A stretch of 64,000 nucleotides of DNA, from assembly GCA_977020255.1 (NCBI GenBank), contig CDROCS010002559.1, forward strand, positions 248,001 to 312,000, written 5' to 3'. This document shows, one piece after another, positions 20,291 through 45,879 of this stretch (position 1 is its first letter; each line of letters opens with the position of its first letter). A model generated the notes under the pieces. The model did no database searches, had not been told where the DNA came from, and was given only the letters and a program-made list of their open reading frames with translations. Position numbers and translations under genes: made by a program. The stretch is from Obrimoposthia wandeli (Eukaryota).

Positions 20291-20699
20291 ATAAAACAAC
20301 AACAACAACCACAAATTCAAAAGTCAGTGCAGTTTAACAATCAAAATCAACAATTTGCTTACAAAAACCCAATACATACTATAGAAAACACTGATATAAC
20401 CCAGGAAACTGAAGAAGTCTCACTATTAAGATTAAGACAACAAAAGATAGATAAACGTTACAAAGAAACACAACAACAATATCAGGATGATGGCCAAAAT
20501 ACAAATGGTTCAAACGCACAGTCAGAATTTGGAGACATGTTTAGAAACGGTTGCCTGACATTAAAACACACAAATATGAAAATAAACCAAAATACTCAAA
20601 CACAAAACACACAGTCAAAAATTAAAAATAGAAAGCGAAAGTCACCAAAAAAGCGAAAAATAAAAACTATTAAAAATACATACTGTTCTAACAAAAACA

Positions 20700-22613
20700 T
20701 ACAAAAACTATGGAAATTAATTCAATTAATATTTACAATATGTATAATTATGAATATAATAAAACCTATAAATGCTCTTGAAGCATATGATTGCTCAAAA
20801 TATAGTATCCAAAATAAATACTCCTTAATGGATTTACAACAATGCGCCGACGCAGACCCAAACGAAGTAAAAGTTAAAACCACTAAGTTATTCCACGTAT
20901 ATCAGGAAACAGATTTTATAAACACCGAAGTTTTTGAGTGTAGGGTACACGTAGAAACATTCATAACATATTGCGGACAACACAGCCATAATTCGATTGT
21001 CAAACCTGCACTAGGAAAAATACCAATAATTGTCGACGCACTAAATTGTAAGGACGCTTTTGCATCAGGAGAACTAAGAATAGATAGATAAATTAAAGGA
21101 CGAGCAGTAAAAAATAAAATAATACAACAAATGATTACAGTAGTAGGAACAATAAAATCTGACGGTGCATGTACAACAGGTACATACGTCGTGATGGGAG
21201 TCAAACAAAGTGGCTTAGTAGTTATAAAATACTTTGAAGTGGAACTAAGAACGTTCAAGGCAACATTTGACCCATCTACAAATAATATGGTAACTTTGCC
21301 ATTTTGCGAAGCTAATATATAGGTCATTGCAATACAGGATCCTCAATTTTAAATTAGAAGGTAAAAACAGACCAATGCAAATTAATACTCCTTAAATCTG
21401 AAAGTTTTCAAATAATTCAAGGTCAAAGATTTAAAGATGACCCAGAACTTGATCAAAGAGTTCCAAAAGATATACATAAAAAATATAGGTCAAGAAAAAT
21501 TCAAAAAACATCAACCCAAACTATTTTAATGTCAACAGAACAAGGTTCTGGAATGCGATTTATTAAAAAGAAAGAGGAATCCCGATGTGGACATTCTATT
21601 TATACAACAAACTATAAAGGAATACATTTAAGTAAAGAAAAAATATATACGCAAAAACCACACCATCAAAGTTTGACATAAAAAATTATGATTATTTTAA
21701 TAATAAATTAGATTATTTTTATCATAAAGGCTTAATGACAATTGAGTCAATTTATAGAGAGACAATAATGAATGATTGTAAATTAAACCAAGAAATTTTA
21801 AAAACAAAATTGGCCATAATTGCTACAAATCCAGAATTAATAACACCATTATTACCGTTAGCGGATGGTACTTTTGGAAGAGTAATGGGAGAAGTGTTAT
21901 ACACTTAACAATGTAAAAAAGTAATAGTTAACATAAGAAATCATAATAAATGTACTAAAGAATTACCAATTTCATATATAAATCATTCGTTATTCGTTGA
22001 ACCAATTACCAGAATAATACTTTTTAAGACATTTAGCATAAAAAACATAAATTGCTCAAATATAATGGCACCTCACTATCGAATTTCTAGGGATATTTGG
22101 ATATCACTCCCAAGAAGAGACATAGTAGCTCAACCATTAAAGTTACAGTTAACCAACCTCAATAATGACATATAAATAAAATCAGACAATGACATAAATA
22201 CAAAAGGCATATACATACAAGAAGACATAGATAAATTAAGAAAATAAATTTTATTTCCTCAAATTAGATCACGAATTTTAACACAAATTATTGAAAGATC
22301 AGTACCAGACGGAATTGGCCGTCCTGATAACGATTTATTACTTTCTCCAAATCATTTTATAAAAGCTACTAAAAATACAATGTCAAAAATATGGGGAAAA
22401 TTTTTAATTTTTGGTCAAGCATTTTCTGGACTTGTAGGAATATATGCACTACTAATATGCTTTAAAATCCTTTTGAGTCAAATTTTATCTACATATTATA
22501 TTTATAAAGTTGGTGGATTGACATGGAAACTAATTTTGAGATGTTTTCCATTTTTGGCATAATTTCTTATATTTAACCATCATCAAAATACAGCAAATGC
22601 ATTATCGAACGAA
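20700..22613 (+). pseudogene. Envelope glycoprotein, chuvirus (Monjiviricetes)-like class III fusion protein
   Basis: Hydrophobic signal ...IIKPINA followed by LEAYDC...SL...C, FECRVHVETFITYCGQHSH, GACTTGTY, GEVLY.xQCKKV, ELPISY...FVEPITRII, and a C-terminal hydrophobic region WGKFLIFGQAFSGLVGIY. Stops and frameshifts present. Confidence 0.8.
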
Positions 22614-26758: not shown

Positions 26759-27510
26759 ACCTCATGAGGTCATGACCCCCCCTATGCTCAGGAAAAATGT
26801 CTTTGTCTTGAAAGACACACATACAGTAGGGGGATGTAAGTCTTTCAGGACAAATACATTTTGAGCATACCCCCCTTGAGCACAGTTTAAGGTCACGATG
26901 AGGACATGTCCTCATGAGGTCAACTTAAGGTCACGGTGAGGACAAGATGTAGGTCATGACCTCATGAGGTCAAGTCAAGTTAAGGTCATGACGTCATGAG
27001 GACAATGTACTTTAAGGTCAAGTTAAGGTCATGACGTCATGAGGACAATGTCATTTAAGGTCACGCTGAGGTCATAAGATGACTCATCGATGACTCATAT
27101 TCTATTTTTAGTAACATTCTTTAAAATTATATATCTTTTTATCTAAAGGTGGTATTAACACCAATTCAATAAAATACATATCGTGTGTGTGTGTGTTTTC
27201 TAATTTATTTAAATTAAATTATCTACTTATAAAATAAAGTATTATATAATTTGATAAATTTATTTAAACTAAATTCAATTAAATTAAACTATCTACTTAT
27301 AAAATAAAGTATTATATAATTTGATAATCATGTTTAAACGTTCCTGCATCTATCTAACAAAGATAGTCACGAACTGCATCTATATTGCAAATACTTGCAT
27401 CTTTATGTAATCAATAGTAACAAGTATTACATTTATTCTTATACAAGCATGTATATATATGTGTGAGTGTCTAACAAAGACAGTTACGTACTGCATCTAT
27501 ATTGCAATGT
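26759..27510. repeat. Polinton left TIR (outer ~150 bp missing)
   Basis: Reverse complement of ~44965-45728; rich in TCATGA and TGACGTCA palindromes. Confidence 0.9.
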
Positions 27511-27512
27511 AA

Positions 27513-27935
27513 TTACAAAGTTTTTGGTCGGTTAACTAAAAAGTTTAGTTTTTTACCAAGATAGGCACTAGGATCCTTTTCAAATACTTTTGTAAGTTTA
27601 TCTAATTTTACAAAAATATCAAGCATACCATCCCCTTTTTGTATACCATCTCCTTTTTGCAATCCATTCCCATTTTGTATACCTCTCATGTAATCCACAT
27701 TCTTTTTGTGCTTTATAGCTTTTTTATCAACTCCTCCAAACCATCTACCTAAAAGATTTGCTGCCATCATATGAATACCCAAACCCTCCATGATTTTCTT
27801 TTTACTCATAGTCTTTTTAACCTTAGTCTTTTTCGACTTTAATGATTTAGTAGGTTTTTTAGTCATTTTCATAATAAATATTAAAGTATCACTATTGTTT
27901 ATATATATAAAATGAAATAATACAAATAAAGACAC
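27513..27935 (-). CDS. Basic Polinton protein with repeated QxGxG motifs (candidate virion core protein)
   Basis: Lys-rich N-terminus; QNGNG, QKGDG, QKGDG. Confidence 0.5.
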   Translation of the reverse strand: MSLFVLFHFIYINNSDTLIFIMKMTKKPTKSLKSKKTKVKKTMSKKKIMEGLGIHMMAANLLGRWFGGVDKKAIKHKKNVDYMRGIQNGNGLQKGDGIQKGDGMLDIFVKLDKLTKVFEKDPSAYLGKKLNFLVNRPKTL

Positions 27936-27944
27936 AAAAATTAA

Positions 27945-28334
27945 TTAGTCAACTCTAACAGCATCAATTATTTTCCATATCGGAGTTTCCAATCCACTGG
28001 GTCCGATCTTGCATCCTTGAATTCTGATTGAGAGAATCCATTCTAGTTTAGGAGGAGGTACTTCGTATATTGTTCCATTCTCATGCTTGAAAGTGGCATT
28101 CGATCCTTTGATTACAAATTTGTTTTCCTGAAGCGTATAGTTGATTCCGAATTGAGTCAAGATAATATTGATTCTCTCTTTATCCACAGAAGTCAAATTT
28201 GATATTTCAAAATCAAATTTAAGCGGCTCGATGTTGACGGGAAAAATAAAATTATAGTTATGAGCTTTCTTCAAAAAGTGCATCTCATATCCATAATATG
28301 TATGCATAGGTTGATATAGCTTTTCAAAATTCAT
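27945..28334 (-). CDS. Polinton hypothetical protein (possible OB-fold ssDNA-binding protein)
   Basis: Intact 129-aa ORF with a beta-rich C-terminus (ILSIRIQG...PIWKI); functional call is weak. Confidence 0.45.
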   Translation of the reverse strand: MNFEKLYQPMHTYYGYEMHFLKKAHNYNFIFPVNIEPLKFDFEISNLTSVDKERINIILTQFGINYTLQENKFVIKGSNATFKHENGTIYEVPPPKLEWILSIRIQGCKIGPSGLETPIWKIIDAVRVD

Positions 28335-28407
28335 ATTGACAATTATAAATTGAAATATTCAATTGTTTATCCTCTAAAGCTCCCTTCTAATTGGTCGATA
28401 TTCTTGT

Positions 28408-28635
28408 TTATGAAAATCGTTTAGTATTAGTCATATCCTTAAAGGGCTCACGTTCTTCGGTTACGCGCGTAGGACTTGTTATTGTTTGACTTGATAGATT
28501 AATATTTTCTCCCTGATTATTTCTATTATAATTCATATTATAATATAAATTACTACCGGAACCTATATATGTACTAGCTCTACTTTCAATATTTTCATTA
28601 TTTTGATTATCCATTTTCAATAAAATCATTATCAA
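28408..28635 (-). CDS. Small Asn/Ser-rich Polinton ORF
   Basis: 75-aa ORF divergent from the IAP gene; probably frameshifted at its 3' end. Confidence 0.35.
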   Translation of the reverse strand: MIMILLKMDNQNNENIESRASTYIGSGSNLYYNMNYNRNNQGENINLSSQTITSPTRVTEEREPFKDMTNTKRFS

Positions 28636-28767
28636 AATATTGTTTATACTGTTTTATTCTTAAGACAAAGACATCACATGACTATTCTTGTAAAAACCAA
28701 GAATGTGGTCTAAAAATAGATTTTCACTTACTATATAAGCTAGTTAATTTCATCATTTAATTTTGTT

Positions 28768-29769
28768 ATGACTACTAAATTTATTGCATATTATGTTTCA
28801 GAAAACGGAGAACCCACCATTAGACGACGGCGTTTTGATAAGATTTCAAGAATAAATGAAAATATGATATATGAAGAAAGAAGATTAGAATCGTTACAAG
28901 CAAAGTTTACTGGTTTAGCCAATAATAGAGCTTTAGCAAAAGCAGGATTTTACAAGCACGATGATTCGAAAGATAATGTAAAGTTTATTTACTGTCACGG
29001 AGAAATATCGGGATGGGAGTACTATCTGAAACCAATGAAGCGGCATCAGCTATTTTTCCCAAGATGCCCGTTTGTTTTGAAAATGAATGTTTCAAACGTA
29101 CCAATAATTGATTCCAGCACCGCACAAATTGATTTTGATTCAACTCCAATGGATAAAGTAGTTATTGTACTCAATAATAATTCTAATGATATTGAAATAC
29201 CTACATTATCGATTTTCGATCATGTATATATTTGGAATGATTCTTATCGATGTTGTTTCTGTCAGAAAGTAGTACCCCGGCTTGAGTTTATTGATACTAT
29301 GCCCGAAAGAATCTTTCATACTCGATATTGTAAAGCATCTAGTATGGGAATCAAGAACGGATGTATTGTTGAATATCATATTAGTAATGATGAAATTTAT
29401 GCTCAAATGGAAACTCGTCAAATAGTTTTGCTGAAACGTGATTACAGTCATGATAGAATCAAAGCCGTTTTAGTTAATAGGTTTAAAACATTCGGTAACA
29501 AATATGATTCTATATATGAGTTTATAACGGATTTAAGATCTTTAGAAATAAAATCTGAACCAAAACATCGTATAAATTATCTCGAGTACCTCTTACCAAA
29601 TCCCGAATGTGTTGTTTGCATGAGCGATGCGATTTCCGCGGCATTTTTACCATGCGGTCACTTAAACACGTGTATTAAATATTCAGATCGTTTTATTACA
29701 TGTCCATATTGCAAGACAATTATCATTAGAAGAGTAAGAAATATTAGAGTTCATAGCATAGGCAATTAA
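28768..29769 (+). CDS. Inhibitor of apoptosis (BIR plus RING)
   Basis: RRLES...LAKAGFY...VKFIYC...W...P...H....PRCPF (BIR); second degenerate CCFC...H...C; C-terminal CVVC...FLPCGH..TC...CPYC (RING). Confidence 0.88.
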   Translation: MTTKFIAYYVSENGEPTIRRRRFDKISRINENMIYEERRLESLQAKFTGLANNRALAKAGFYKHDDSKDNVKFIYCHGEISGWEYYLKPMKRHQLFFPRCPFVLKMNVSNVPIIDSSTAQIDFDSTPMDKVVIVLNNNSNDIEIPTLSIFDHVYIWNDSYRCCFCQKVVPRLEFIDTMPERIFHTRYCKASSMGIKNGCIVEYHISNDEIYAQMETRQIVLLKRDYSHDRIKAVLVNRFKTFGNKYDSIYEFITDLRSLEIKSEPKHRINYLEYLLPNPECVVCMSDAISAAFLPCGHLNTCIKYSDRFITCPYCKTIIIRRVRNIRVHSIGN

Positions 29770-29841
29770 ACAAAGACATGCAATCTAAATATAAATGTTC
29801 AAATAGTATAAATAGAAGAAATTAGTTTATAATAATCAGAA

Positions 29842-30365
29842 ATGCTACTTCACAATATCAAATTAGTGAATATTAATTACAAGGGAATGGTTGTAAGTAA
29901 CATTCAACACTTACCATTTAGGACTTCGAAGCCTCATCAGTATCGACTCAAGTGGGAAGGTTACACTATTATCATTTTCAAATCTGGTAATTTATTTTTA
30001 CATTTATATATAATTATAATTTAGGGACATGCAGAATAATGGGTTGCACAACAGTGCTGGATGAAAGCAGTCTTCCTTTTGATATAAAAATCGAAAGAAT
30101 CCAATCAATCAGTCTCAGCAGCAATCTAGAAACATCAATAAACCTAAACAAGATGAGCAAGTGTATGGGTTCGGAAGCTGTTTACGAGCCAGAAATCTTC
30201 CCGGGACTTCGATACGTCAAATACAATCCCCTATGCGTGAACATTTTTGCGAGCGGAAAGATTATGATACTTGGTGTTAAATCTTTAAATTATGAGTATC
30301 TGATTGAATGTATTTTGTTTAATATAGATCTTCACACTTGTGTTATTTATTTATTTATTTCCTAA
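29842..30365 (+). CDS. TATA-box binding protein-like, spliced (intron 29987-30024)
   Basis: Repeat 1 TIIIFKSG|TCRIMG is restored by a 38-nt GT-AG intron; repeat 2 YEPEIFPGLRY...NIFASGKIMILGVKS matches the TBP signature. Confidence 0.85.
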
Positions 30366-30515
30366 ACAAAGACAACCAAATAGTCGTAATGTTGCTAAAA
30401 ATAGATTTCTCTTAGAGACAAAGACATCACATGTCATTACTTGCAAATAGTATTAATGTTGTCTAAAATAGAATTTTCTGGGTTATAAACGATATTTGAT
30501 TTGCTTTATCATAAA

Positions 30516-30759
30516 ATGGATGAAATTATTGAATGTAAAGAGGTTCAGCATGCATTAAATGATCTTGGCTCAGTTATTCTCAATGCTTAAATTAGGAAAA
30601 ATAATCACGAGTAATATTTATATGTAGTTTATTTAACTCTTTAGGTTACGTCATCAAATACATTTACATGAGATGTTAAGTACAATGGAAAGGTTGAATA
30701 ATACTCCAATCACATCATATGATGAAACTGATGCTCCAATGAAATCAAACCTCGTTTAG
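30516..30759 (+). pseudogene. Small Polinton ORF with a putative 34-nt intron (30611-30644)
   Basis: ATG after a repeated promoter-like motif; phase-2 GT-AG splice keeps the frame; one internal stop. Confidence 0.35.
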
Positions 30760-30792
30760 TATATAAGAGTAAATTGACTCTGAATTGATAAA

Positions 30793-31140
30793 ATGGAGAA
30801 AATCACATCAGCAACATCATCACTACCAGCAGCAACATCATCAGCAACATCATCACTGGCAACATCATCGCCAGCAACATCATCAGTAACATCATCACTG
30901 GCAGCAACAACAACAGTTATAAGAAGAGAAGAAACTATTGATGAAGTGATGATAGAAGAAGAAATTATTATAGATCCAATTATTGAAGATAAGAGACGGA
31001 TAGATTTTTTAAATGCTTTGGCTTTTATGGAACCCATAATAGCTCATGCTTCCAATATGGAAATGAACCATATGACCCATCTTTTTGATAGTTTGTTTAG
31101 TGCTAGATTTACTCAACATAATGTAGAAAAATTAAACTAA
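30793..31140 (+). CDS. Ser/Thr/Ala-rich low-complexity then acidic protein
   Basis: 115-aa ORF in the operon-like plus-strand run; built from GCAACATCATCA repeats. Confidence 0.5.
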   Translation: MEKITSATSSLPAATSSATSSLATSSPATSSVTSSLAATTTVIRREETIDEVMIEEEIIIDPIIEDKRRIDFLNALAFMEPIIAHASNMEMNHMTHLFDSLFSARFTQHNVEKLN

Positions 31141-31145
31141 CCGCG

Positions 31146-31562
31146 ATGAGTGAGATTTTAGTAAATCAATTATATATTGGTAATTATAGAGATGGGTTTG
31201 ATGAAACTAATCTGTTGAACTCCAATTTCACTCATGTAATCAATACATCTATACTGGATAAAATATCTTATAAGAAATTAAAATATACTTCTGTCTTTGT
31301 AAACTCAAAATTAGGAGAAACAATAATGAAGTATTATAAACAGACTAATAATATAATTAAAGAAACTATCGAAAATGGTGATAAGATTTTAGTATGTGGT
31401 CATTATGGTAGTTTACATGCTGCTTGTATTGTTATTGCATATTTATCTCATTCGATGGGTGTTACTGCTGCTTCCAATCTTGTTAAATCTAAACGGACTA
31501 TTGCTGCTCCTAATGAAGCTATGCTTCATCAAATACGTATTTTTAATCATTATCATGTGTAA
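31146..31562 (+). CDS. Dual-specificity phosphatase fold, catalytically degenerate
   Basis: LYIGNY...FTHVIN...KILV...CIVIAYL...VKSKR...PNE...QI. The P-loop reads VCGHYGSLH in place of VHCxxGxSR. Confidence 0.82.
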   Translation: MSEILVNQLYIGNYRDGFDETNLLNSNFTHVINTSILDKISYKKLKYTSVFVNSKLGETIMKYYKQTNNIIKETIENGDKILVCGHYGSLHAACIVIAYLSHSMGVTAASNLVKSKRTIAAPNEAMLHQIRIFNHYHV

Positions 31563-31582
31563 ATTTTATTCGTCTTTATCTT

Positions 31583-31699
31583 TAATCAGTGTTTTTATTA
31601 ATCAGTATCTTTATTAGTTAGTGTCTTTATTAGTCAGTGTCTTTATTAGTCAGTGTCTTTATTAGTTAGTGTCTTTATTAGTCAGTGTATTTATTAACC
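31583..31699. repeat. 16-bp tandem repeat, ~7 copies
   Basis: Unit TCTTTATTAGTCAGTG. Confidence 0.85.
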
Positions 31700-31755
31700 A
31701 ATCAGATTTCAGATGTATAGTATATAAGCAGATTACTTTTTACTGCTTCTTCATT

Positions 31756-32049
31756 ATGTCCACTCCAAATCATTTCAAGCAAGATGTTGACAAGGCGGTG
31801 AAGAGCTTCATCTCGAAGAATGTCATAGAAGAAGATGTCCTGAAACTCATTGATGTCTCAAATCTACCCCTGGAAGAACACGTAAGAAGAATGGTGCATA
31901 TAATTGATGACAAGGCAGTCAATCTTCTCATTCTGGGATACAATCAGAAGAAAGAACGTGCAAAGAAAGAAGAGAAAAGGAGCTTTTTCTACGAAAAGAG
32001 TTTTTTATTGTTTGTTGCTGGATGTATAATAATAAAATATTTTAAATAG
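31756..32049 (+). CDS. Small protein with a C-terminal hydrophobic tail anchor
   Basis: Likely ATG at 31756 downstream of a TATA box; ends KSFLLFVAGCIIIKYFK. Confidence 0.55.
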   Translation: MSTPNHFKQDVDKAVKSFISKNVIEEDVLKLIDVSNLPLEEHVRRMVHIIDDKAVNLLILGYNQKKERAKKEEKRSFFYEKSFLLFVAGCIIIKYFK

Positions 32050-32092
32050 TTTTGTCTTATAAACATTATCCCGATAATCTAATATTTTTAAT

Positions 32093-32743
32093 ATGAACTT
32101 TAAAAATAATTCAGTTTTTCAGATTGTAGGTCCTAGTGGTAGTGGGAAAACACATTTTGTATGTAAATTACTGCAAAATAATAAATACTTTACCTTTAAG
32201 TTTAATAAGATATACTGGCATCAGGGAGGAGATGGAGAAGCTGGTTTAACCAGTAAAGAGTTTAAGAAAATCAAAAATATAAAAGTCATTAATGGATTCG
32301 ATGATAATTGGTCTGAGCGATTACAACGACATGATGTTATTGTTATTGATGATTTATATCAAGAAGCAAATAAAGAGAGTGATTTCAATAATTTATTCAC
32401 TAAAATAGCACGACATCGGGAAGTAACTGTTGATTTCATCACACAAAATCTATTTCATTAAGGAGGGAACCATAGAACTCATAATTTAAATGTACATTAC
32501 CTTGTTCTCTTCAAGAATCCACGTGATCAGACGGTTGTTGATTTTGTTTCAAGACAAGCTTATCCAAATAATAGAAAGTTCCTAATTGATTCATTTCAAG
32601 ATGCAACTACTATTCCTCATGGATACATTTTTATTGATTTTACTCAAGATTGTCCCGATGACTTTAGAGTTAGAACTGATGTATTCAATCCATCAGGAAT
32701 TACCGTCTATAAACAAACAAAGAAACCAGTTTCTCGAAGATGA
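32093..32743 (+). pseudogene. A32/FtsK-like packaging ATPase
   Basis: GPSGSGKT, VIVIDDL, ARHR...ITQNLF, FKNPRD, HGYIFID. One in-frame stop at 32459-32461. Confidence 0.92.
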
Positions 32744-33129
32744 ATTTTAAAAAGGAAACTGTTAAACCCGAAGTTAAAAAATTGATTAAATCAGTTTTAA
32801 GTGCAAGGAAAATGGTTGCTCAAAAATCCAATAAGAAAAGAACTGTTGTTAAAAAATCTAGGAGTATTGCCTATTTCAATTCTCTCATGCGTGCACCTGC
32901 TATTCGCCGCCTAGCTATTCTTAAATCATTCCCTACTTTTGTAATTGATGATTTACTTAATATGATACAGAAAATAGTTTCTGGTAAAATAATTGTCAAG
33001 GCTAATATGAATCGGCATAAGAAACCTCTACTTGCTTTGTTTCACGCCAAAACACGGATCGGTAAACGTAAGTTGCTTTATAAGCAAAGTGGTGGATTTT
33101 TAGGATTTCTCGTACCAATTATTAGCTGA
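32740..33129 (+). CDS. Conserved basic Polinton protein (QSGGFL type)
   Basis: Basic ORF ending RKLLYKQSGGFLGFLVPII, located between ATPase and integrase. Confidence 0.6.
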   Translation: MNFKKETVKPEVKKLIKSVLSARKMVAQKSNKKRTVVKKSRSIAYFNSLMRAPAIRRLAILKSFPTFVIDDLLNMIQKIVSGKIIVKANMNRHKKPLLALFHAKTRIGKRKLLYKQSGGFLGFLVPIIS

Positions 33130-33265
33130 ATAGTTGGTGCACTTGCTAGTAGACAAATAAAACGATGATTATAAACATAAATTCGATTCAAAAATATGAA
33201 TTTATATATGGGATCACTTCCATCTATTCCTAAATTCAATATAAAAATCAAATCGTCTTGCTGTA

Positions 33266-34293
33266 ATGGAGAAAATATGGTTCGATCCAAGTCACCCCGT
33301 TGGTTACACAGGGGTTTCAAAATTAGCAAAAGAGTCAAAGAAGACAAAAAGGAAACTCAGGCGTGGTTGAGAAATCAATTAGCTTACAGCTTAAACAAAC
33401 CAATGAGACGTCGGTTCCCGACGAGATCATATAAAACGAGCGGCCCGAATGATTTATGGCAAGCAGATTTGATGGAAATGATTCCGTATGCAAGTATTAA
33501 CTACGGACATCGATATATTTTAACTTGTATTGATGTCTTTAGCAGATTCGCGCGAGCTATTCCATTAAAGTCTAAGTCTGGTATCGATGTTTTTGCCGCA
33601 AGGAAGCTTTTGATTAAAGAAATTAAACCAAGAAATTTCCAAACAGACAATGGAAAGGAGTTTTATAATAGACATGTTGGAACACTATTGAAAAAACATA
33701 ATATTAATCATTACTCAGTATTTTCCCAATATAAAGCTGCCCTAGTTGAACGTTTTAATCAAACATTGAGAGATCGATTGAAAAATTATTTCACAAAGCA
33801 GGGAAATAAGTCATGGGTCACTGTTTTACCTCAAATAATACATGCATACAATCATAGTGAACACTCATCATTAGACCGGAAAAGACCCGTTGATGTTACA
33901 GATGAGAGTGCTATGAAAATTTGGCAACGTTGTAACCAAAGTCAAGTTGTAAAGAAACCCAAGTATAAAGTTGGTGATTATGTACGTATTTCTCAAATTA
34001 GTACTACTCCTTTTATAAAGAATTTCAAAGAGAATTGGAGCGATGAAGTATTTCGTATAACTAAAATTGATAATAAACGTGTGCCGGTAATGTATTTCAT
34101 TGAGGATGAAACCAATAATGTAATCACGGGTAAATTTTATCATGAGGAATTACAAGTCTTGCCTGAGAAACCAAATGTATATAGAATCCAAGAAATTTTA
34201 GAGACAAAAGGTAGAGGAAAGCATAAACAATATCATGTTAAGTGGCATGGATATACTGAACCTAGTTGGATATTAGCTTCTCAAATAGAATGA
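33266..34293 (+). CDS. Polinton retroviral-like integrase with chromodomain
   Basis: MEKIWFDPSHPVGYTG (frameshift) ... WQADL, CIDVFSRF, QTDNGKEF, VERFNQTL, YHVKWHGY..PSW. Confidence 0.92.
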
Positions 34294-35328
34294 ACTCAAT
34301 GTATGTTGTATTACCAAGTAATGGTTCGCCATTAACTCAGCCGAATAATACTGCTAATAGTTTTAGTATTGATTATCAAAGCTCAATCAATTTACCCGGT
34401 GCTTGGGAAGCTGCTCTTACGGAAATTTCTTTCAATTACTCTCCTCTATCTATTCAAAGTGAAACTGAGATTGAATATATTACCAAACAAGAAGCTGATA
34501 AAGTAACTGATGTGACTTTACTATTTGATAAGGGTCAAATGGATTTGGCTCGTATTAAGTCAGGCGATGATTTCACAATCTATTTAAATAAAGAGAATCG
34601 AATTCAAATTATGGGAAAAGGGGATAATTTTGAAATAGTTTTTAATGATGAAATTGTTGCAGAACAATATGGATTTCCGTCTAACGTTGAAAAAGGTAAG
34701 CATGCAGTTTCGGGAATTATGGATAATCATGTCAAGTATCCGATAATTACATTCAAGATAAAAAACAGATTCACTAAACGCGAGAGGAAAATATATTCAG
34801 TTCCCAATGATTTTCTTTTTCCCGATAGCGAAAGCATGTGTAAACATTTTAAAACAGTGTTACCAAATGTATTTGAAAACTTTAAACTAGTTAATAAATT
34901 GATTCATTTCAAATTTAAATCAAATATTGTTAAAGTTGTGATGGATAAATCATTAGCCTCAATTATCGGTTTTGATGAAAATGAATTTGAAAATAAAAAT
35001 GAGGTTTTAAAAAAAAAAAAAAAAAAAAGCAAAGATTATTCCTAAAATGACTAATGCATATAATCAGATTTATATCTACACGAGTATTACCGAACAAATA
35101 TTCGTAGGAGGAAGGAAACTTCCCTTAATTAAAGCAATTTGGGTTCAACAGGAAAAGCACAAGTATGGTGATGTTATACATATTCCAATTGAAAATCCAA
35201 TGTATATTCCCGTGAGTTCTTCTTCTATAAACAATATTGAAGTTAATATACGTAATGATTCTGGAAGATTAATTACATTTGCTTACGGAGCTAAAACAAG
35301 TTTAACGGTTCATTTTCGTAAATTATGA
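34290..35328 (+). pseudogene. Minor capsid protein (penton, PX), frameshifted at a poly-A tract
   Basis: YVVLPSN...NNTANSF...LPGAWEAALTEI; C-terminal IYIYTSI...VGG...PMYIPV...IEVNIRNDSG...VHFRK. Confidence 0.85.
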
Positions 35329-35687
35329 TTGATTCAAGTATAATCGATGCGTATAGTAAACCGATGCAAGGAGGTGATTTACCTTATTTTGCGGGAAAAC
35401 AGTATGGATCAGGATGGCTGAAGGTTTTTGGTCGCTTTGCTTTCCCACTACTCAAGCGACTCGGGAAATTTATTCCTAATGTTGGATAAAAATACTTGTC
35501 TGGTGATGGGAAATTTCTTCCCACACTAAAGAATGTAGCCTTGGATCAGGTGAATGAAATTTCACCAAGTCTAGCTGAATTTTTGAAAAAGAAAACTCAA
35601 AAGGGAAGTGGTTATAAACGTAAGAAAACATCTAAAGCATCGGGTATAAACAAACGTTTGAAACTAGGTGGAACAATTTTTAAGTAA
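35325..35687 (+). pseudogene. PZ-like basic core protein
   Basis: QGG, QYGSG...FGRFAFPLLKRLG, QKGSG; one stop; ATGA/TAATG overlaps with penton and MCP. Confidence 0.6.
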
Positions 35688-36730
35688 TGAGTTGTGCTAA
35701 AACTGAATTGTGTATATTCGATAAACCTATACCTCAGGTTGTGGCTGATAGTGCTAGTTTTGAAGAAATATTTCCGACAAATACGGTTAACGGTACATCT
35801 TCTCCGGATTTAGAATTCAATATTAATGGATCCAATACTCAATATCTTGATTTGAATGATAGTTTATTTCTCGTTAAATTGAAAGTTACAAAGGAAGGAG
35901 GAGGTGATTTGGATGATGATTTGGATATCAAATCAGCTAATTACATGTTGCATACTCTTTTCAAGGATGTGATTCTCAGTCTCAATAATGTGAAAGTTGA
36001 GGGAAATAATACTAGTTACACCCATAAAGCAATGATTGAAACATTACTGAATTACGGTAATGATACGAAATTGATTAATCTTGATGCAATTGGGTTTGAT
36101 GATGATGAAAAAAGAAGAACAGCTTCGATTGCGAAATCTAAAGTATTGTCACTTTGTGGGAGTCTCCATTTGGATTTCTTTAAGCAACCAAAGTATATTT
36201 TACCCGGTGTAAGTACACATATTCGAATGAAGAGAAATCCAGTAGGTTTTAGTGTTGTTTGCGCCGATACTATTAAAACCGCAATTGAGATTACGGAAGC
36301 AAAACTGTTGGTTCGAAGAGTAAAGGTGGAACCATCTGTACTTGTTGCACATCGAATAGGGTTGGAGAAGCAAAATGCATGTTATCCTATTAGAAAAACT
36401 AATCTTGTTTCTTACGCTATCCCTACGGGGGCTCTATCTTATTACAAGGATCAGATTTTTGGTGATATGCAACTTCCAAACTTTGTTTTAATTGCTTTTC
36501 AAAAAACCTCTACCTATGGATGTGAGTCTAAAAATGAGGTTTCTCAATTTGAATACACGAATGTGAGTTCAATTAAACTTGCACGAAATATTGATTATCA
36601 AGAATCTTATACGAATGACTTTGAAATTAATGATTATGTATTTTCTTATGTGCAATCTTTAATTAGAAATCTTGGTCATTTGGATAAGGATGCTAATATT
36701 GGAATTTCAATGACTGATTTCAAGGATAAG

Positions 36731-39116
36731 TGTTGAGAATGAGAAATTTTGGGTTAATTGTGATTGTTTTGTGGGGGAATTAATTGATTGTTTCCCTTAA
36801 TTAGAGGGCGATTAAAGTAATTAGGGGAATGCACTTTGGCATTTGGTGGTTGGTTTGGCTGATTCAGTCCCCGACCGGCTTAACCGGTTTCGCCCTGCCG
36901 GGCTCGTCAGGGAGACGGCAGATTTATCTCTGGCTTCGCGGTGGGCAAAATGCCCGCGAAGTCAGAGATAAAAGAGATAAAGGACATGAAGTAAAAAGAG
37001 CGAATAAAACACAGGACACGTACCTGTTAAAGTCACCCAAATTCCTCGCTCAGCAACAACATATGCCAGCAGATCCGACTGATGTCGAATTCAACTGGCA
37101 ATATATCTCTCTCCCTCTGTGTTCAGACCGCTACTGGGTCTTTTTCAATCAGCCCAATCTCTCTGTGGTAACGGTGGGTGATTCTGGAGGGCCACTTGTC
37201 TCCCTGGCCTTATCTGATACTGTCACTTGTCAAGGCGCCGGTGGTCTTCTACGTTTTTGTGAGCGCAGTCTGTGGCGCTGTTTGGGCGGAGGGATGGATC
37301 CAGTTGTCGACGGCCGCTGCCATTGGTCTTTGGCCAGTGACAATCTCTCTCCCTCTGTGTCCAATCCGCTACTGGCAACGTCTCTCGTTTTTCTCTGTCT
37401 CGAGACTACCAGCGTGAATTGGTTGCCTGATCCTGATTGATTTTTGTATTTCTGCTGCACATATAACCCCAGTGCAAAATGAACTACATTTAATTTATTT
37501 TTCATTGACACAATTTCCTGTATAAAAATTCTCTCAAAGGACAAATATAACAATATTTTATTGTAACAAATACTTGATTCAGAAAAAGAGTTCGATTAAA
37601 AGTATTTATTTTTTCATTTATTTAATTTGATTATTAAAAATATTTTATTGAATCAGAAAATATTTGATAAGTATTCAATTACCTTTTACAAATAATTATT
37701 CACATTTTCAACTGATTATTGATTAGTAAAGTGACTTTTGTCATTCGGTAAATTAAATTTATTTTGATATTGAATATCATCGCTATCTTTAATTTTGAAG
37801 TAAAATTTTATTTATCAAAATTTATTTATAACAATTGTATTTTAATTATTTGATATTTTGAATATTAGCATTTTTATTGTATTTTCTAGTCAAAGAACAA
37901 ATATAACAATATTTTATTGTAACAAATACTTGATTCAAAAAAAGAGTTCGATTAAAAGTATTTATTTTTCATTTGTTTGATTTGATTATTAAAAATATTT
38001 TATTGAATCAGAAAATATTTGATAAGTATTCAATTACCTTTTACAAATAATTATTCACATTTTCAACTGATTATTGATTAGTAAAGTGACTTTTGTCATT
38101 CGGTAAATTAAATTTATTTTGATATTGAATATCATCGCTATCTTTAATTTTGAAGTAAAATTTTATTTATCAAAATTTATTTATAACAATTGTATTTTAA
38201 TTATTTGATATTTTGAATATTAGCATTTTTATTGTATTTTCTAGTCAAAGAACAAATATAACAATATTTTATTGTAACAAATACTTGATTCAAAAAAAGA
38301 GTTCGATTAAAAGTATTTATTTTTCATTTGTTTGATTTGATTATTAAAAATATTTTATTGAATCAGAAAATATTTGATAAGTATTCAATTACCTTTTACA
38401 AATAATTATTCACATTTTCAACTGATTATTGATTAGTAAAGTGACTTTTGTCATTCGGTAAATTAAATTTATTTTGATATTGAATATCATCGCTATCTTT
38501 AATTTTGAAGTAAAATTTTATTTATCAAAATTTATTTATAACAATTGTATTTTAATTATTTGATATTTTGAATATTAGCATTTTTATTGTATTTTCTAGT
38601 CAAAGAACAAATATAACAATATTTTATTGTAACAAATACTTGATTCAAAAAAAGAGTTCGATTAAAAGTATTTATTTTTCATTTGTTTGATTTGATTATT
38701 AAAAATATTTTATTGAATCAGAAAATATTTGATAAGTATTCAATTACCTTTTACAAATAATTATTCACATTTACAACTGATTATTGATTAGTAAAGTGAC
38801 TTTTGTCATTCGGTAAATTAATTTTATTTTGATATTGAATATCATCGCTATCTTTAATTTTGGAGTAAAATTTTATTTATCAAAATTTATTTATAACAAT
38901 TGTATTTTAATTATTTGATATTTTGAATATTAGCATTTTTGTTGTATTTTCTAGTAAAACATTGTTGATTAATTTTGATTTGAAAAATTATTCACATTGT
39001 GCTCGTGCTACTTTATTTTAATTAAATTTTTTAATGACCAAATTTCAATTATTAAAATTGAATTAAAATTTACCTGAAAATACTATTGCATAAATAATAT
39101 ATTATCTAATATAACA
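36731..39116 (+). mobile_element. Solo LTR, 2386 bp
   Basis: TGTT...AACA termini, 4-bp TSD TAAG (36727-36730, 39117-39120). Confidence 0.9.
37535..38955. repeat. ~355-bp tandem repeat, 4 copies, inside the solo LTR
   Basis: CAAATATAACAATATTTTATTG recurs at 37542, 37898, 38253 and 38608. Confidence 0.95.
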
Positions 39117-39335
39117 TAAGTATACACTGTTCACATTTGTTCTCTCTCCTGATTTCGATATTAGTCAAGCTCAAATCCCTAAACAGGGAAATTTGAAAGT
39201 AGAAATCAAGTTTTCAAAAGCACTTGAACATCCTACTAATATTATAATCTATGGAGTACTCGATTCTGAGGTTCAAATTACCAAGGGAGGAACAGTACTA
39301 GTATAAACAGAATGAAAACAATAAAGAAGATATAA

Positions 39336-39686
39336 ATGAAGTAAGTCAGTTTGAATTTATTAATTAATATATATTCTAGTTCGGACGAGATAACAAAAAG
39401 CGGAAGAAAACTACTCGGTTCGCGTTTCAATGGAGTCTACAGTCTTGATCACATGCCCTCTTTGACTCGTTTAGATGGATATGTAATCAATACATATTCA
39501 TCTAATTTGCGTGGTAAACATTGGATTGCAATACATGTTAAAGAAAATGAAATCTTTGTTTTTGACCCCTTTGGGATATATTACCCTTCTAAATTAGTAT
39601 CTACAGTACTTGATTCTGGAAAGAAAGTACATTTTAGTAAGAAACATTATCAAAATGTTTTAACACAGTCATGTGGACAGTACTAG
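39336..39686 (+). pseudogene. Adenain-like cysteine protease, copy 1 (3'-truncated; intron 39341-39379)
   Basis: ATG AA|intron|T TCG gives MNSDEI; HWIAI, FDPFG, QSCGQ then stop at the duplication junction. Confidence 0.85.
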
Positions 39687-39720
39687 TATAAACAGAATGA
39701 CAACAATAAAGAAGATATAA

Positions 39721-40098
39721 ATGAAGTAAGTCAGTTTGAATTTATTAATTAATATATATTCTAGTTCGGACGAGATATCAAAAAGCGGAAGAAAACTACT
39801 CGGTTCGCGTTTCAATGGAGTCTACAGTCTTGATCACATGCCCTCTTTGACTCGTTTAGATGGATATGTAATCAATACATATTCATCTAATTTGCGTGGT
39901 GAACATTGGATTGCAATACATGTTAAAGAAAATGAAATCTTTGTTTTTGACCTCTTTGGGATATATTACCCTTCTAAATTAGTATCTACAGTACTTGATT
40001 CTGGAAAGAAAGTACATTTTAGTAAGAAACATTATCAAAATGTTTTAACACAGTCATGTGGACAACTCTATCTGCTTTGGTTAAAGCATAAACAATAG
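39721..40098 (+). CDS. Adenain-like cysteine protease, copy 2 (intron 39726-39764)
   Basis: Same structure offset by 385 bp; catalytic His, Asp and Gln/Cys present (HWIAI, FDLFG, QNVLTQSCGQ). Confidence 0.88.
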
Positions 40099-40135
40099 AT
40101 ATAAACAATATCAAATAAAATTATTGCTATAAAAA

Positions 40136-40676
40136 ATGTCTGTTTATTTTATTGATTTTGAAGCTTTTATTGATAATAATACTGAATTTGTAATAAAAGA
40201 ACTATGTATAATGGATGTGGATGTATAATAATACTGAATTTGTAATAAAAGAACTATGTATAATGGATGTGGATGCAATCTTCTATCCTAAACATTATGT
40301 TTTTAAAATGCAACCTATATGGGACATGATGAATAGAAAATCAAGAAAAATAAATAGATATCTCATTAAGCATTACTATCGACTAAAACTAGTTGATGGT
40401 AATAGTTTTTTCAAGATACAAGAAATAACTGAGGAAATAAAACGTTGTTGTGATGTATCCAAATCAATTTTCTATGTTTTGGATGAAAATAATGGAGCTA
40501 AAATAAAGACAATCAATAAATATTTTCCTGAATTTAGCTCGATAAATTACTCGAAAACATTAAAACAATTAAAACCATCAAATATCAATTGTCCATATAT
40601 TAAACATGGAGAGCATTGTGCATACAAGAAATGCTTTGCAGCTAGTTTAGATTATTTAAATATTAATGAAAAATAA
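40136..40676 (+). pseudogene. DEDD-like nuclease-family Polinton protein, frameshifted by a 52-bp duplication
   Basis: YFIDFEAF...FVIKELC...HYVFK; duplication 40173-40224/40225-40276. Removing one copy restores the frame. Confidence 0.6.
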
Positions 40677-40828
40677 ACTACTCACATCTTTCAGTAAACT
40701 ATTCTGATTAAAATGAATCTGATTAGTTTAAATAATAAATGAATCTGATTGTCTTAATACTAGCTCGAAAATAGTATATAAGCAAGCATCAATCAACAAA
40801 TAACTCTATATTATAAACGAAATTTAAA

Positions 40829-43800
40829 ATGGTAAGTTTCTTGTTATTTCTATATTTATTATATTTCTAGAATTGCAATATGAATAAACGACTATGCTTC
40901 GAGGAGAGTCACAAGGAATGTGACGGAAAAATGAAGAGCTACTTTGGACAGAAGTTCAATGGACAACAATTCTACGTATGTCCAGTATGTCTCTCCGCGG
41001 AGGAGATTGATTGGGTAGAGTTTGTGGCGCGTCATCGTGTCCATCTTCGCCATTTCCAGCAACGTGGCAAGAAGGCCATCTTTCAGAATAGATCTGCTTC
41101 TCCTGCTACTATTTCTCAAGTTCCGGTTGCTGCACCAGTTAGTGCTCCAGTATCTACTCCAATTGCTGCTGTTCAAGTTGCTGCACCAATTACTTCTCCA
41201 ATTGCTGCCCCAATTGCTTCTCCATCATCTGCTGCACCAATTACTATGGTTCAAGTTATGCCTCCTCCAGTTAGTATGATCCCCGCGCCGTTACCAGCAT
41301 ATACCCACAAGAGAAGTGTTATGCCCACTTCAGGTAGCTCTGTTGCGAAGTTTCCCAGGGTTGATGGTGTTAAGCGTAAGACTAGTCTTCGGGGCACGAT
41401 TGAGACATTGTCACTAGATGTTTCTAATGACAATGTCATCGATTTACAAGTTCCTGTATCACTTTTGACTAGCTTAAGGGACACAGTCAGCAAGTTTGCG
41501 ACTTGCAAGGTTCAATTCGGGGTGCGTGTTGAATTTTCCAATATTGGAGAAACACGCGCTTGGAATTTTTCCAATAGAGGGCTCCCCATAGATGAGGGGT
41601 TTATAGATGCGGGAGTAGATGGAATCAACAATAAGATTGAGAATTATTCTCAAAGTAGCAGTAATTGGGTAGTGAACCGCTTCCTGGAGATTTCGTTTGT
41701 TGTGACTAAAACAACAACAATGAACTATCTCCAGGGAAGTAGTTATATACCTACTCCATCTGAGTTAGCACTCTCACATTGCGTTATCAATGTGCAGAAC
41801 TCTAACACTTTTTGCTTCCTTTACAGTATCTTATCTGTACTTTTCCGCGAAGTATTTCGCTCTAATCCTCATCGGGTTAATCAATATGATGCCCTTTTGA
41901 GTCAATTAGTTTTTGATGAGAATGAGATGCCGATGCGTCTATGTAATATACCGCGATTTGGGAGAAAGAATCCATCTCTCTCAATCAACGTATTTACATT
42001 CAATAGGTTCTCTAATGTGCAAACAGATAGGGATATCTCCAAAGATCCCTATGTGGATGTCATATACAGGATCACAAACCCATACGCTAAGCCAATCAAT
42101 CTTCTCCTTTTAGAAAATAATGATAATTTTCATTATGTCGGTATTCCTAAACTCAATAGGCTGCTTAATTATAGGAACAAAGGTGTATCTAATTGCATTC
42201 AGTGTACTTGGTGCCATAAGTGTCTTCATTGGTTCCAGAAAGCAATAAGTTACGCCAAACACGTTCCGCTCTGTAGGATGAATTTAGATCATACAACACT
42301 TTATTCAATGCCTACAGAGAAGCATATTGAGTTTAAGGACTTTTCGAAAACGATTTCTCCGCCTTTTGCTGTTTACGCGGACTTTGAGGCTGTGCTACCG
42401 CCGCATGGAATCCACCATCAGATTCAGCTTCCAATCTCGGCCGGTATGCTCATGTCTCCCGTTGCAGCCACGAGAGGGTACACACATGAATACTCGGTCT
42501 TTACCGGGGAATCTTGTGTGGTATCCTTTTTGCAGAAATTAGAGGACTTGGCGAAAGAGGTTGTACTCCCATGGTACAAAAAGCATGCGATCGAGGTGAT
42601 GCGACAACTCACACAGGAACAGGTATCGAGTTTCAATGCCGCAAGAATCTGTTACCTGTGTAAGAAGAAACTCACAAACAAAGTTCGAGATCGCGATCAC
42701 ATGATTGGCGAATACCTGGGAGCTGCACATCCAAATTGCAACTTATCAAGGAGACTCAATCGATCTTTTCCCGTCATATTTCATAATCTGATGGGTTATG
42801 ACATGCACCACATATTGAAACACGCACTGTGCAAGTTTCCTGATTGGAATGTCTCTGTTATACCTCAATCAACAGAGAAATTTCAGGCTATGATGGTGTA
42901 TATTGGAGGAGTCTGTATACGTTTCATCGATTCCCTTCAAATTTTGAACAGCAGCCTAGAAAAACTTGTGGAAAACCTGGGTGTGACTCCTCTAACACAT
43001 TCGGTCTTCCCGCAACATCTGGTGAGCGCCAAGGGAATTTTCCCATACGATATGGCAGTATCAGAGACTGCTCTTCGTGTAATCACCAGCTTACCGCCAA
43101 AGTGGGATGAGAAGATCAAGCCAGCACAATATGAAATGGCGAAGATGGTCTGGACTCAGAGCGGCTGCTCATCGCTCTGGGACTATATGCTGGTCTATAT
43201 GAAGATGGACGTCTACCTTAGACGTGTTTACAGCATTCCGGACCAAGGCCATTGCCGACGATGGATTGGAGCCACTCAATTTCTTCTCCATCCCTGGTTT
43301 GTATTTTACTAATTTTTAAACTTTCACCAAGTAATTTTTATTAAGTAACTTTTCACAAAGTAATGATTTTCACAATGATTTTCACAATGATTTTAATAAA
43401 TGTTTTTATTTCCAGGACTGACTTTTGCGAGTGCTTTTAAATCCCTGCTTCGCCTGAAATCTTCTGCTCCCGTTGTACGAGTCGAGCTAATACAGGATCC
43501 AGAAATGTACCGTCTTTTCCGGTTCGGGATTCGCAGGGGTATGACCTTTGTTAATGAACACCGCGTGGACGCCATCAATGGTACAGAACTTTTGTACATT
43601 GATGTAAATAATTTGTACGGGTGGGCTATGTCCCAGTTTTTACCTTGTGTTAACCTTTCCTGGGTGACTGATCGCTTAGAGTTGGGGAATATTATTTCCA
43701 GTATAAAATAAGCAGATTTATCCTGTAGTCGCTTCGCTTATTTATTGGAAATAGATTTATCCATTCCCAATGAGCTTCATAATAAATTCGACGATCTTCT

Positions 43801-44779
43801 CCTTGCTCCAATTAAACAGCGTCCACCAGGGTGTAAGACTGAAAAATTGTTATTAACACATTACCCTAAGAAACATTATGTTGTGCATTCTAGATTGCTA
43901 CAAATGTACATTAGACTTGGTGCTAAGGTAGATTTTGTATACAGAGCAATACAGTTTGAACAAACTAATATTTTTTCAAAATATATTGAGGATAATTCTC
44001 TCAAAAGAGCTGCGGCTACAACAGATTTCGAGCGGGATTACTACAAACTGAAGGTGAATTCTTTATTTGGAAAACTCATTGAGAATCTGATGAAAAGAAT
44101 AAACCTCCGGATTTGTAATACTCCACAGAAGCTGGTTACCTATTGCAGTAAAGCCCACTTTCGTAGGACAATCGAAATCGATACGGACCTTATTGCAGTT
44201 CTACTGGATAAGGAAAATATTGTTTTGGATCGTCCTAATTATATGGGCCAGGCAGTATTAGATTTAAGCAAACTTCGTATGTATGAGCTACAATATGAGC
44301 AGTTGGAGAAATATCGAGTTCAATTTAACTGCGACATTAGAATTATAGCGGGTGACACTGATAGCTTTTTCTTGAAGTGTAATAATGTAAATGTTCAAGA
44401 ATCACTGTTACCTGCTATGATTGCTGATGGACTGTTGGATAACTCGAAATTTCCAAAAACCCATCCGCTTTATACGACGCTTAATACAGCGATAGGAAAA
44501 TTTAAAGATGAGAGCAAGGGATTATTTAGCTATAGGCAAGGGATTTTTCTACGTCCAAAATCATATAGCCTAGAGACTACAGAAGGTGAATCTCAGATGA
44601 GAGCAAAAGGTATTAGTCTCCGGCAGACAAGTATTAGGCACTCTAATTACTTAGCCGTATATGAGAGTGGCGTTAGCGAGCGTGTACAACAACAACGTAT
44701 AAGCTCACTAAATCATCAACTTTTTACTATAAGGTTAAGTAAAATTGCCTTAAGCAGTAGCGATGATAAACGCAAGTGA
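40829..44779 (+). pseudogene. Protein-primed family B DNA polymerase with two introns (40832-40870, 43297-43415)
   Basis: YADFEA, DRDHMIG, FHNLMGYD, FIDS, KGIFPYD, YIDVNNLYGWAMSQFLP, KLKVNSLFGK, GDTDS, GKFKDE, RPKSY. Frameshift ~43220 and stop at 43709-43711. Confidence 0.95.
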
Positions 44780-44964
44780 GTGGAGAAAAACCGATCAGTT
44801 GCCTACGGTCACTTTTTATACCCGGATGAAGTTGTATAAACTTTTTATATGTGTTTGTATATATTTTTACTCTCCTTTGTGATTTTAAGGAATATATGTG
44901 TTAGAAATACATGTCTTTATTTTAAAATTATTGGTATTTACATAAATTTGCAGGTTTTTTGCAA

Positions 44965-45879
44965 TATATATGCAGTACGTGACTGTCTTTGTAGGTATTG
45001 ATTACTGTCTTGGTTAGACACACACACACGTGACTGTCTTAGTAGGTATTGATTACTGTCTTTGTTAGACATACACACACGTGACTGTCTTTGTTAGACA
45101 CTCACACACATATATACATGTATAAGAATAAATGTAGTACGTGACTTGTTACTATTGATTACATAAAGATGCAAGTATTTGCAAGATAGATGCAGTACGT
45201 GACTGTCTTTGTTAGATAGATACACGAACGTTTAAACATGATTATCAATATTTATAATACTTTATTTTATAAGTAGATAATTTAATTTAAATAAATTATA
45301 TAAGCTTGGACACACACACACGAGATGTCTTTTGGTGAAGACCGCGTGTTAATACCACCTTTAGATAAAAAGATATATAGATTTAAAGTATGTTACTAAA
45401 AATAGAATCTTTTTGACCTCACCGTGACCTTAAAGTACATTGTCCTCATGACGTCATGACCTTAAGTTGACCTTAAAGTACATTGTCCTCATGACGTCAT
45501 GACCTTAACTTGACTTGACCTCATGAGGTCATGACCTACATCTTGTCCTCACCGTGATCTTAAGTTGTCCTCATGAGGTCATGTCCTCATCGTGACCTTA
45601 AACTGTGCTCAAGGGGGGGTATGCTCAAAATGTCTTTGTCCTGAAGACGCACATCCCACTACTGTATGTGTGTCTCTCAGGACAAATACATTTTTCCTGA
45701 GCATAGGGGGGTCATGACCTTATGAGGTCATGACCTAGATTTTCCCATGACCTCATGAGGTCATGACCTACATATTGTCCTCACCGTGACCTTAACTTGA
45801 CCTAGATTTTTTGTCCTCAACTTGACCTGAACTTGTCCTCAGGGGGGGCTTTGTTCCAGAAGTGCTACATCTACCTACT
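44965..45879. repeat. Polinton right TIR (complete terminus)
   Basis: Pairs with 26759-27510, carries extra internal copies of a GTGACTGTCTT...GTTAGAC unit, and ends at 45879 where BEL integrase sequence resumes. Confidence 0.9.

Follow-up and report, generated by a model that had tools for sequence, protein, structure and literature searches.

This work concerns a 64,000-nucleotide stretch of the genome of Obrimoposthia wandeli (contig CDROCS010002559.1, positions 248,001 to 312,000), referred to below as the window and numbered from its first letter, and in particular the accessory genes of a Polinton/Maverick (adintovirus-type) element that lies within it. The Polinton, a decayed copy, spans positions 26759..45879 and was recognized by gene matches and by the long inverted repeats that bound it, the left one lacking its outer end. 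Pfam matches identify a protein-primed DNA polymerase (PolB; DNA_pol_B_2) and a retroviral-like integrase (rve). The accessory cluster (28768..32049) is found between the left arm and the packaging ATPase gene and, like the other genes and motifs given below unless stated otherwise, is read from the forward strand. It contains six ATG-initiated open reading frames (ORFs) of 333, 60, 108, 115, 138, and 97 aa. The preliminary description of this locus had presented six co-oriented ORFs, which is right for ORFs; as a gene count it needs correction, with the six most likely amounting to four genes and a spliced small gene bringing the cluster to five.

The first gene (28768..29769) encodes a 333-aa protein resembling inhibitors of apoptosis (IAP), with BIR and RING domains (Pfam E-values of 1e-10 and 2.5e-9). 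Each zinc ligand of the BIR (CCHC) and of the C-terminal RING is kept in 40–43 of 44 copies of the family; the window copy has lost one BIR and one RING ligand (kept in 43/44 and 41/44 copies, respectively). The second gene, coding for a shortened TATA-binding protein (TBP), is treated separately below. The third (30516..30759, ~70 aa) has a predicted intron of 34 nt (30611–30644), whose GT-AG ends are kept in 38 of the 40 readable copies, and a premature stop in exon 1 of the window copy. The 115- and 138-aa ORFs form a single frame in 28 of the 35 copies having both ends, and it is this frame that is broken near 31140 in the window (30793..31562). Its product consists of a Ser/Thr/Ala-rich repeat, an acidic/helical part, and a dual-specificity phosphatase (DSP) domain (DSPc, E 3e-14) from which both the catalytic Cys and Arg have been lost, with Gly at the Cys position. 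The HCx5R motif is absent in 20 of 21 copies (the remaining one could not be parsed) and in a diverged subfamily. Past a 16-nt tandem repeat (31566..31709) lies the last gene (31756..32049), whose 97-aa product has a short hydrophobic C-terminal stretch and a basic end. Searches for homologs with the IAP and with the DSP domain returned no match at E ≤ 1e-3, IMG/VR yielded no IAP match, and no family match was obtained for the second exon of the small gene, the N-terminal part of the phosphatase, or the 97-aa protein.

The identification of an IAP, a TBP, and a pseudophosphatase in the preliminary description is thus borne out by the domain matches (TBP, E 1e-12) and by the loss of the two catalytic residues. 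Its tail-anchored protein fared less well: the hydrophobic stretch is there, with a best hydropathy of 2.32 over 13 residues, but the value drops to 1.38 over 19, making a tail anchor possible but borderline. Its statement that most frames are intact is misleading as well: the IAP is open but lacks two zinc ligands, and the phosphatase frame is broken.

Several further repeats accompany these genes. ACAAAGAC repeats are found between cluster genes at 28665, 29770, 30366, and 30418, with the complement within the terminal repeats; AAAGACA occurs at 0.85 per kb in the element and 0.33 in the flanks (15 sites in each); and a 63-nt upstream block is common to the IAP and small genes. Elsewhere in the genome, a second large repeat family (L186–L215; at least 150 matches scored), whose open frames reach 4633 aa, encodes an active-type DSP that has HCx5R and, after it, a further DSP-like stretch that is degenerate. 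Among the six loci listed, identity between the active-type domain and the pseudophosphatase of the Polinton is 31–34%, and this family is a possible source of the Polinton gene.

A single gene for a mini-TBP most likely accounts for the 60- and 108-aa ORFs, which would be its two exons, separated by a predicted spliceosomal intron. Exon 1 (29842..29986) covers a shortened first repeat, and exon 2 (30025..30365) the end of that repeat and a full second one. The gap between them (29987..30024; 38 nt, phase 1) is 37–38 nt long with GT and AG bounds in 43/43 readable copies. Contiguous relatives (P0001–P0003) cross the junction unbroken, in an alignment with 31 relatives the two pieces are separated by the junction codon alone, and 13 of the best 150 database matches start exactly where the second piece does. 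In divergent Polinton families (L065, L149, L153 with a GC donor, L159, and L165–L177), a gap of 35–41 nt and of differing sequence falls at the same phase-1 Gly codon, while many metagenomic relatives lack the gap. A frameshift or an old stop as the origin of the gap was considered and rejected: its length varies from 35 to 41 nt across families yet the frame is always kept. Counting the small gene and two positions in PolB, four short spliceosomal introns are predicted in the family. In contigs of four sequencing runs from one sample, none of the 15 joints listed fell at a predicted intron, a result with no bearing on splicing or expression.

Mini-TBPs of ~150–170 aa form 44 clusters at E ≤ 1e-30. 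Among the 19 closest metagenome loci, 10 have Polinton core genes adjoining the mini-TBP gene, and four further short ones carry a neighbor resembling a single-stranded DNA-binding (SSB) protein. A model of the relative P0002 (predicted local distance difference test score, pLDDT, of 90) matches the two-repeat saddle of TBP (E 9e-9, TM score 0.69) and, more weakly, giant-virus TBPs. The fold is that of cellular TBP and TRF and of giant-virus TBPs; the mini-TBP differs in a first repeat without the long helices, and its identity to solved TBPs is ~22–29%. The second repeat is complete, with the YEPE loop, both Phe, and the Pro kept (residue roles after the available text of PMC12529657) and the second Asn replaced by Ser. 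The first, aligned by eye, keeps the Asn and one Phe, the other Phe not being evident. Conservation in the 31 relatives extends to residues of the DNA face, namely both NxN/QS strands and three Phe. A quick tree of 86 columns separates the mini-TBPs from 27 rows of canonical TBPs, cellular and viral, with host paralogues among them (Shimodaira-Hasegawa approximate likelihood-ratio support 93) and groups the window protein with its metagenomic relatives. For this tree, canonical metagenome TBPs and database proteins were thinned to 81 of 248 hits and host TBP was represented by its first repeat, so that it speaks to separation and not to a donor. The mini-TBP belongs to an old Polinton-linked family rather than being a capture from the host. 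The host has several TBP paralogues of its own (L138–L147): one contig carries two in head-to-head arrangement, and a divergent pair, intronless and nearly identical, is located on two contigs. Many mini-TBP genes (L053–L069) also show a TCAT(T/A) word shortly ahead of the start codon, possibly an initiator.

The window copy is one of many. Each family or protein search of the genome (1.35 Gb, 30% GC) scored at least 150 Polinton matches, and a DNA search, in which the best 40 of 6038 candidates were scored, gave at least 28 further near-full copies at 87–96% identity. Their ends read AGTAG...CTACT, and a perfect 6-bp target duplication is seen in 4 of the 8 copies with both ends. As a control for bias, 38 copies were picked by PolB likeness, independently of the accessory cluster; accessory segments are present in 22–25 of these and core genes in 19–24, so that the cluster, in the synteny check that had been proposed, occurs as often as the core. 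Beyond the family, the mini-TBP and IAP recur in other Polinton families of the same genome at ~39–58% identity. At least two of these additional mini-TBP families were noted (L268–L273 and L254–L265). One has the order SSB, TBP, IAP, ATPase, with the IAP 39% identical, and another has no IAP beside its TBP; the interval from TBP to ATPase thus appears, from gene order, to be a variable cargo slot across families.

These data settle whether the window copy alone recently captured neighboring host genes, which evolved neutrally thereafter. IAP, TBP, and DSP domains are indeed all present in the host, but the cluster is found in dozens of copies. The two best-scoring non-Polinton BIR loci are 28–30% identical to the Polinton gene, close to the value for the active-type DSPs of the genome, and host TBP paralogues are likewise distant. 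The 15 flanking ORFs scanned show transposon-type domains or nothing. The copy survey refutes such a capture, to which we give practically no weight, and the claim that the genes belong to the element holds. The five accessory genes constitute a fixed block within a Polinton family that has many copies and is now decaying.

Whether this block was useful to the element can be read from the variants of 58 loci plus the window, counted with weighting for the mutation spectrum. For variants private to one copy, the ratio of nonsynonymous (N) to synonymous (S) change, dN/dS, is 0.98 in accessory genes (658 N, 192 S) and 0.84 in core genes (842, 277). For variants in at least four copies, it is 0.28 (60, 62) and 0.21 (45, 59), respectively. 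The drop is significant in each class (p about 1e-10), and accessory and core genes do not differ from one another (p = 0.42), which answers the dN/dS comparison that the preliminary description had called for: both are constrained. Against one diverged subfamily copy, the ratio is 0.31 for IAP, 0.07 for TBP exon 1, 0.35 for the DSP, 0.18 for the 97-aa gene, and 0.09–0.10 for the ATPase. With shared variants constrained and private ones neutral, the genes were useful during the spread of the family and decayed neutrally after insertion.

The preliminary description had further contrasted intact accessory frames with broken core genes, a difference that would be expected had the host domesticated or favored the accessory genes after insertion. 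Across all copies, breaks per kb are indeed fewer in accessory than in core genes (1.27 vs 2.09; frameshifts p = 7e-6). However, 20 of these copies were selected because they resemble the accessory cluster, and in the PolB-picked set the contrast (1.33 vs 1.86) is not significant (stops p = 0.17, frameshifts p = 0.09). Moreover, accessory stops match the neutral expectation (30 vs 31.5), private dN/dS is 0.96–0.98, the IAP frame is open in 5 of 23 PolB-picked copies, and the window IAP has lost zinc ligands. Domestication is accordingly very improbable, and the contrast itself is not supported. That core genes carry stops is true of the ATPase, and the capsid gene has an insertion, but some of the PolB "stops" arise because their positions fall in predicted introns.

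The same counts bear on how the family spread. It may have moved within the genome as a self-synthesizing transposon, with no infectious particles and with the IAP and pseudophosphatase protecting the cell, a view that is compatible with the promoter model below. The very high copy number, the six-base target duplications, and the short introns, which resemble those of the host (the host TBP intron is 47 nt) and fit long residence in the lineage, all agree with it, and all of the evidence comes from integrated, decaying DNA. Set against this is the purifying selection seen in shared variants of the ATPase (6 N, 16 S) and of the 5' part of the major capsid gene (1 N, 6 S), along with close relatives in unrelated metagenomes. 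In vertebrate Mavericks, purifying selection on such genes has been put forward as an argument for virions, according to the available text (PMC8097293). We consider spread by transposition alone unlikely; selection on ATPase and capsid genes would fit, as indirect evidence, the real virus life cycle that had been suggested for this element.

A further feature of the family lies upstream of its genes. Most element genes have a TATA-like word ~26–55 nt ahead of the start codon, compared with 80 of 1556 flank ATGs having one at 28–45 nt. In the cluster, canonical TATA boxes (TATATAAG) precede the IAP (28732..28739, 36 nt ahead of the start), the pseudophosphatase gene (30760..30767), and the 97-aa gene (31721..31728), and a canonical-type box, TATAAAT, lies 35 nt ahead of the mini-TBP start (29807..29813). 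A second motif, YATAAAC, stands ahead of the small gene (30484..30490) and 35 nt ahead of the ATPase start (32058..32064). Among family copies, YATAAAC precedes the ATPase in 42/44, the integrase in 43/43, the minor capsid gene in 36/42, and the major capsid gene in 42/42, and it also stands ahead of the downstream neighbor of the ATPase, the small gene, and three genes of no assigned family. TATATAAG precedes the IAP in 38/45, the phosphatase gene in 40/44, the 97-aa gene in 41/43, and PolB in 14/15, and TATAAA[ATG] precedes the mini-TBP in 44/47. Neither word was found in the window family ahead of the SSB-like gene or the gene preceding the major capsid gene. The two promoter-like words divide by gene class, with exceptions. 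In independent metagenome loci, some of them at 41–47% GC, YATAAAC is ahead of 28 of 88 ORFs (spurious ORFs counted), as compared with 3 of 266 near canonical TBP genes, and of none of the 16 mini-TBP genes.

We propose, with a probability of roughly 0.5, that the cluster is the early stage of a two-stage programme in which the mini-TBP switches on the capsid and packaging genes. The proposal builds on the conservation of the cluster across copies, purifying selection before insertion with neutral decay afterwards, the TBP fold, and the placing of the motifs. First, host TBP and RNA polymerase II (Pol II) would read the canonical TATA boxes of the mini-TBP, PolB, IAP, pseudophosphatase, and 97-aa genes, and the host spliceosome would remove the short introns. 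The mini-TBP, which keeps the second repeat and the acidic TFIIB-contact loop and has the first repeat cut down, would then bind to YATAAAC and initiate expression of the ATPase, integrase, and capsid genes. In TBP, the downstream half of the TATA box is touched by the first repeat, and it is presumably in this half that YATAAAC departs from the canonical sequence. During this period, the IAP (BIR-RING) would keep cell death in check, and the inactive phosphatase would serve as a decoy for phospho-substrates. Splicing, binding, timing, and the roles of these last two proteins are what we infer.

Several observations weigh against this proposal. Canonical TATA is present in just 8 of the 16 metagenomic mini-TBP genes; a second family of the genome has its IAP behind TATAAACA and its PolB behind TATATAAACA; the SSB gene has CATAAAC in one locus (L055) and neither word in the window family; and PolB of the window family also has TATAAAC 17 nt ahead of its start. 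As copies within a family are not independent of one another, the within-family test amounts to ~17 genes. YATAAAC may also be general to Polintons, given that every element scored bears a mini-TBP: ten other regions of the genome gave mini-TBP-bearing families or fragments and no TBP-less Polinton, and alignments of the ATPase, capsid, integrase, and PolB proteins, when scanned against IMG/VR, found no relatives. The cascade is argued from sequence, motif distribution, and the fold of P0002, a relative with 52% identity to exon 2, and the functions suggested for the IAP, phosphatase, and 97-aa proteins come entirely from homology.

YATAAAC might instead be read by host factors, either TBP acting at a weak TATA variant or a forkhead-type protein, with the cluster being selected cargo. 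TATAAAC is one position off the canonical box, structures of TBP on a C(-25) variant box exist, and we take YATAAAC to resemble a forkhead site. If host factors did read the word, the mini-TBP could soak up TFIIB or other TBP partners and so dampen host transcription; the cut-down first repeat and the exceptions to the gene classes speak for this view. However, CATAAAC, which is further from canonical TATA, is the predominant form in two loci (L067 and L069), the mini-TBP gene avoids YATAAAC in 16/16 loci, and the DNA-face residues are conserved across the 31 relatives. Reading by host factors is thus somewhat unlikely, and the same can be said of the dampening role. The two-stage programme driven by the mini-TBP remains our preferred explanation.

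Outside of the cluster, the remaining genes of the Polinton are in varying states of decay. The packaging ATPase (A32-like; 32093..32743, Pfam) has a premature stop in the window copy. Its Pox_A32 match (E 1.6e-4) and the Peptidase_C5 match of the adenovirus-like protease (E 0.004) are on broken pieces and below the Pfam cut-off, and full-length homologues of both are present in related loci. The putative major and minor capsid genes, expected to encode double and single jelly-roll proteins, respectively, had no Pfam matches; their assignment follows from their position and from conservation in related loci. PolB (40775..44779), behind TATATAAG, has predicted introns at 40832–40870 and 43297–43415 in addition to real breaks. 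The first comes directly after the start codon, which makes up the whole first exon, and is readable in 10 of 15 copies; the second is a length-variable gap within the conserved F-S-I-P-G-L-T motif. In two other Polinton families, an intron is predicted at or just ahead of the PolB start. On the reverse strand, the left-arm gene (27945..28334), a neighbor of the mini-TBP in related Polintons, has a predicted T7 gp2.5-like ssDNA-binding fold. Its model (pLDDT 92) matches T7 gp2.5/Enc34-type SSB proteins and CP312R of African swine fever virus (Z 7.3–8.2, root-mean-square deviation 2.5–3.9, 102–124 residues aligned), and an atlas search with this gene gave no usable matches. At 36732–39117, the major capsid gene is interrupted by 2.4 kb of sequence that other copies lack; this insertion has TG...CA ends together with a duplication of 4 bases and a tandem array of 355 nt, and is probably a solo long terminal repeat. 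A 385-nt tandem duplication across the protease start (39292–39976) is likewise confined to the window copy. Outside the Polinton, a decayed retroelement (18872–23925) has the order gag, mononegavirus-like fusion glycoprotein, and reverse transcriptase, which matches what the available text says of planarian Burro elements (PMC6431247). Taken with the 30% GC and the 47-nt intron of the host TBP gene, this order would point to a planarian host.

In its PolB, integrase, ATPase, capsid-type genes, protease, inverted repeats, and 6-bp duplication, the element is a typical Polinton/Maverick (adintoviruses, Eupolintoviridae). It shares with vertebrate Mavericks, as far as the accessible account goes, a decayed majority of copies, purifying selection on the core, accessory regions beside the core, and AGT...ACT ends (Barreat and Katzourakis, PMC8097293). 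Intact vertebrate Mavericks are there stated to be intronless, unlike the window family with its four predicted short introns. IAP and Bcl2 homologues have already been reported in adintoviruses (Starrett et al., bioRxiv 10.1101/697771; PMC8502044), and IAP in leafhopper adintoviruses as well (10.64898/2026.07.28.741253), in the portions available. In the text of Starrett et al., TBP appears as a figure-legend label only, for MELD viruses of non-animal datasets, and no promoter motif or intron is described there, although figures and supplements may show more. Protist elements have introner insertions and group I introns (PMC12166617, PMC12220804, 10.1101/2023.08.22.554363, 10.64898/2026.10.13.758929), the accessible parts of these papers mentioning neither a TBP nor conserved spliceosomal introns. 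None of the literature covered by our searches describes a TBP family of Polintons, its promoter word, or spliceosomal introns conserved in such elements; Koonin et al. 2024 (MMBR) as well as Grohme et al. 2018 lay outside this coverage and may bear on novelty.

The nearest functional parallel may be the TBP mimics of herpesviruses (ORF24 of Kaposi's sarcoma-associated herpesvirus, BcRF1 of Epstein-Barr virus, and UL87 of human cytomegalovirus), which, according to the available text, act at TATT promoters of late genes (PMC6541308, PMC12529657). In both cases, there is a virus-encoded TBP fold and a modified TATA word ~30 nt ahead of structural genes. However, ORF24 is a large protein that works as part of a complex of six members, binds directly to Pol II, and is without the acidic TFIIB-contact residues, whereas the Polinton mini-TBP, whose role is predicted from sequence, is ~150–160 aa long, keeps the YEPE loop, and has no known partners. 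The pseudophosphatase has its counterpart in STYX-type proteins. STYX has a substituted catalytic Cys and is among the matches of the window DSP, with which it shares the DSP fold and, in the window protein, Gly at this position. The Polinton protein differs in having also lost the catalytic Arg and in being fused to a low-complexity N-terminal part, and it scores closer to DUSP10/19/22 than to STYX.

With an IAP in Polintons already published, it is the intron-bearing mini-TBP and the two promoter classes that are surprising and make up the more unusual part of this family. That an animal Polinton lineage runs an early/late cascade in 16 kb, with a re-engineered mini-TBP reading YATAAAC as its private word, is to us slightly short of an even chance. 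If true, it would be an independent invention of the late-promoter trick of herpesviruses and would offer the on-switch needed in a search for virions of Polintons. A further consequence of spliceosomal introns would be that surveys based on ORFs can score intact Polintons as broken. How Polintons control their genes and whether those of animals form particles are open questions in the field, and a defined promoter word together with a candidate factor would make both of them testable.

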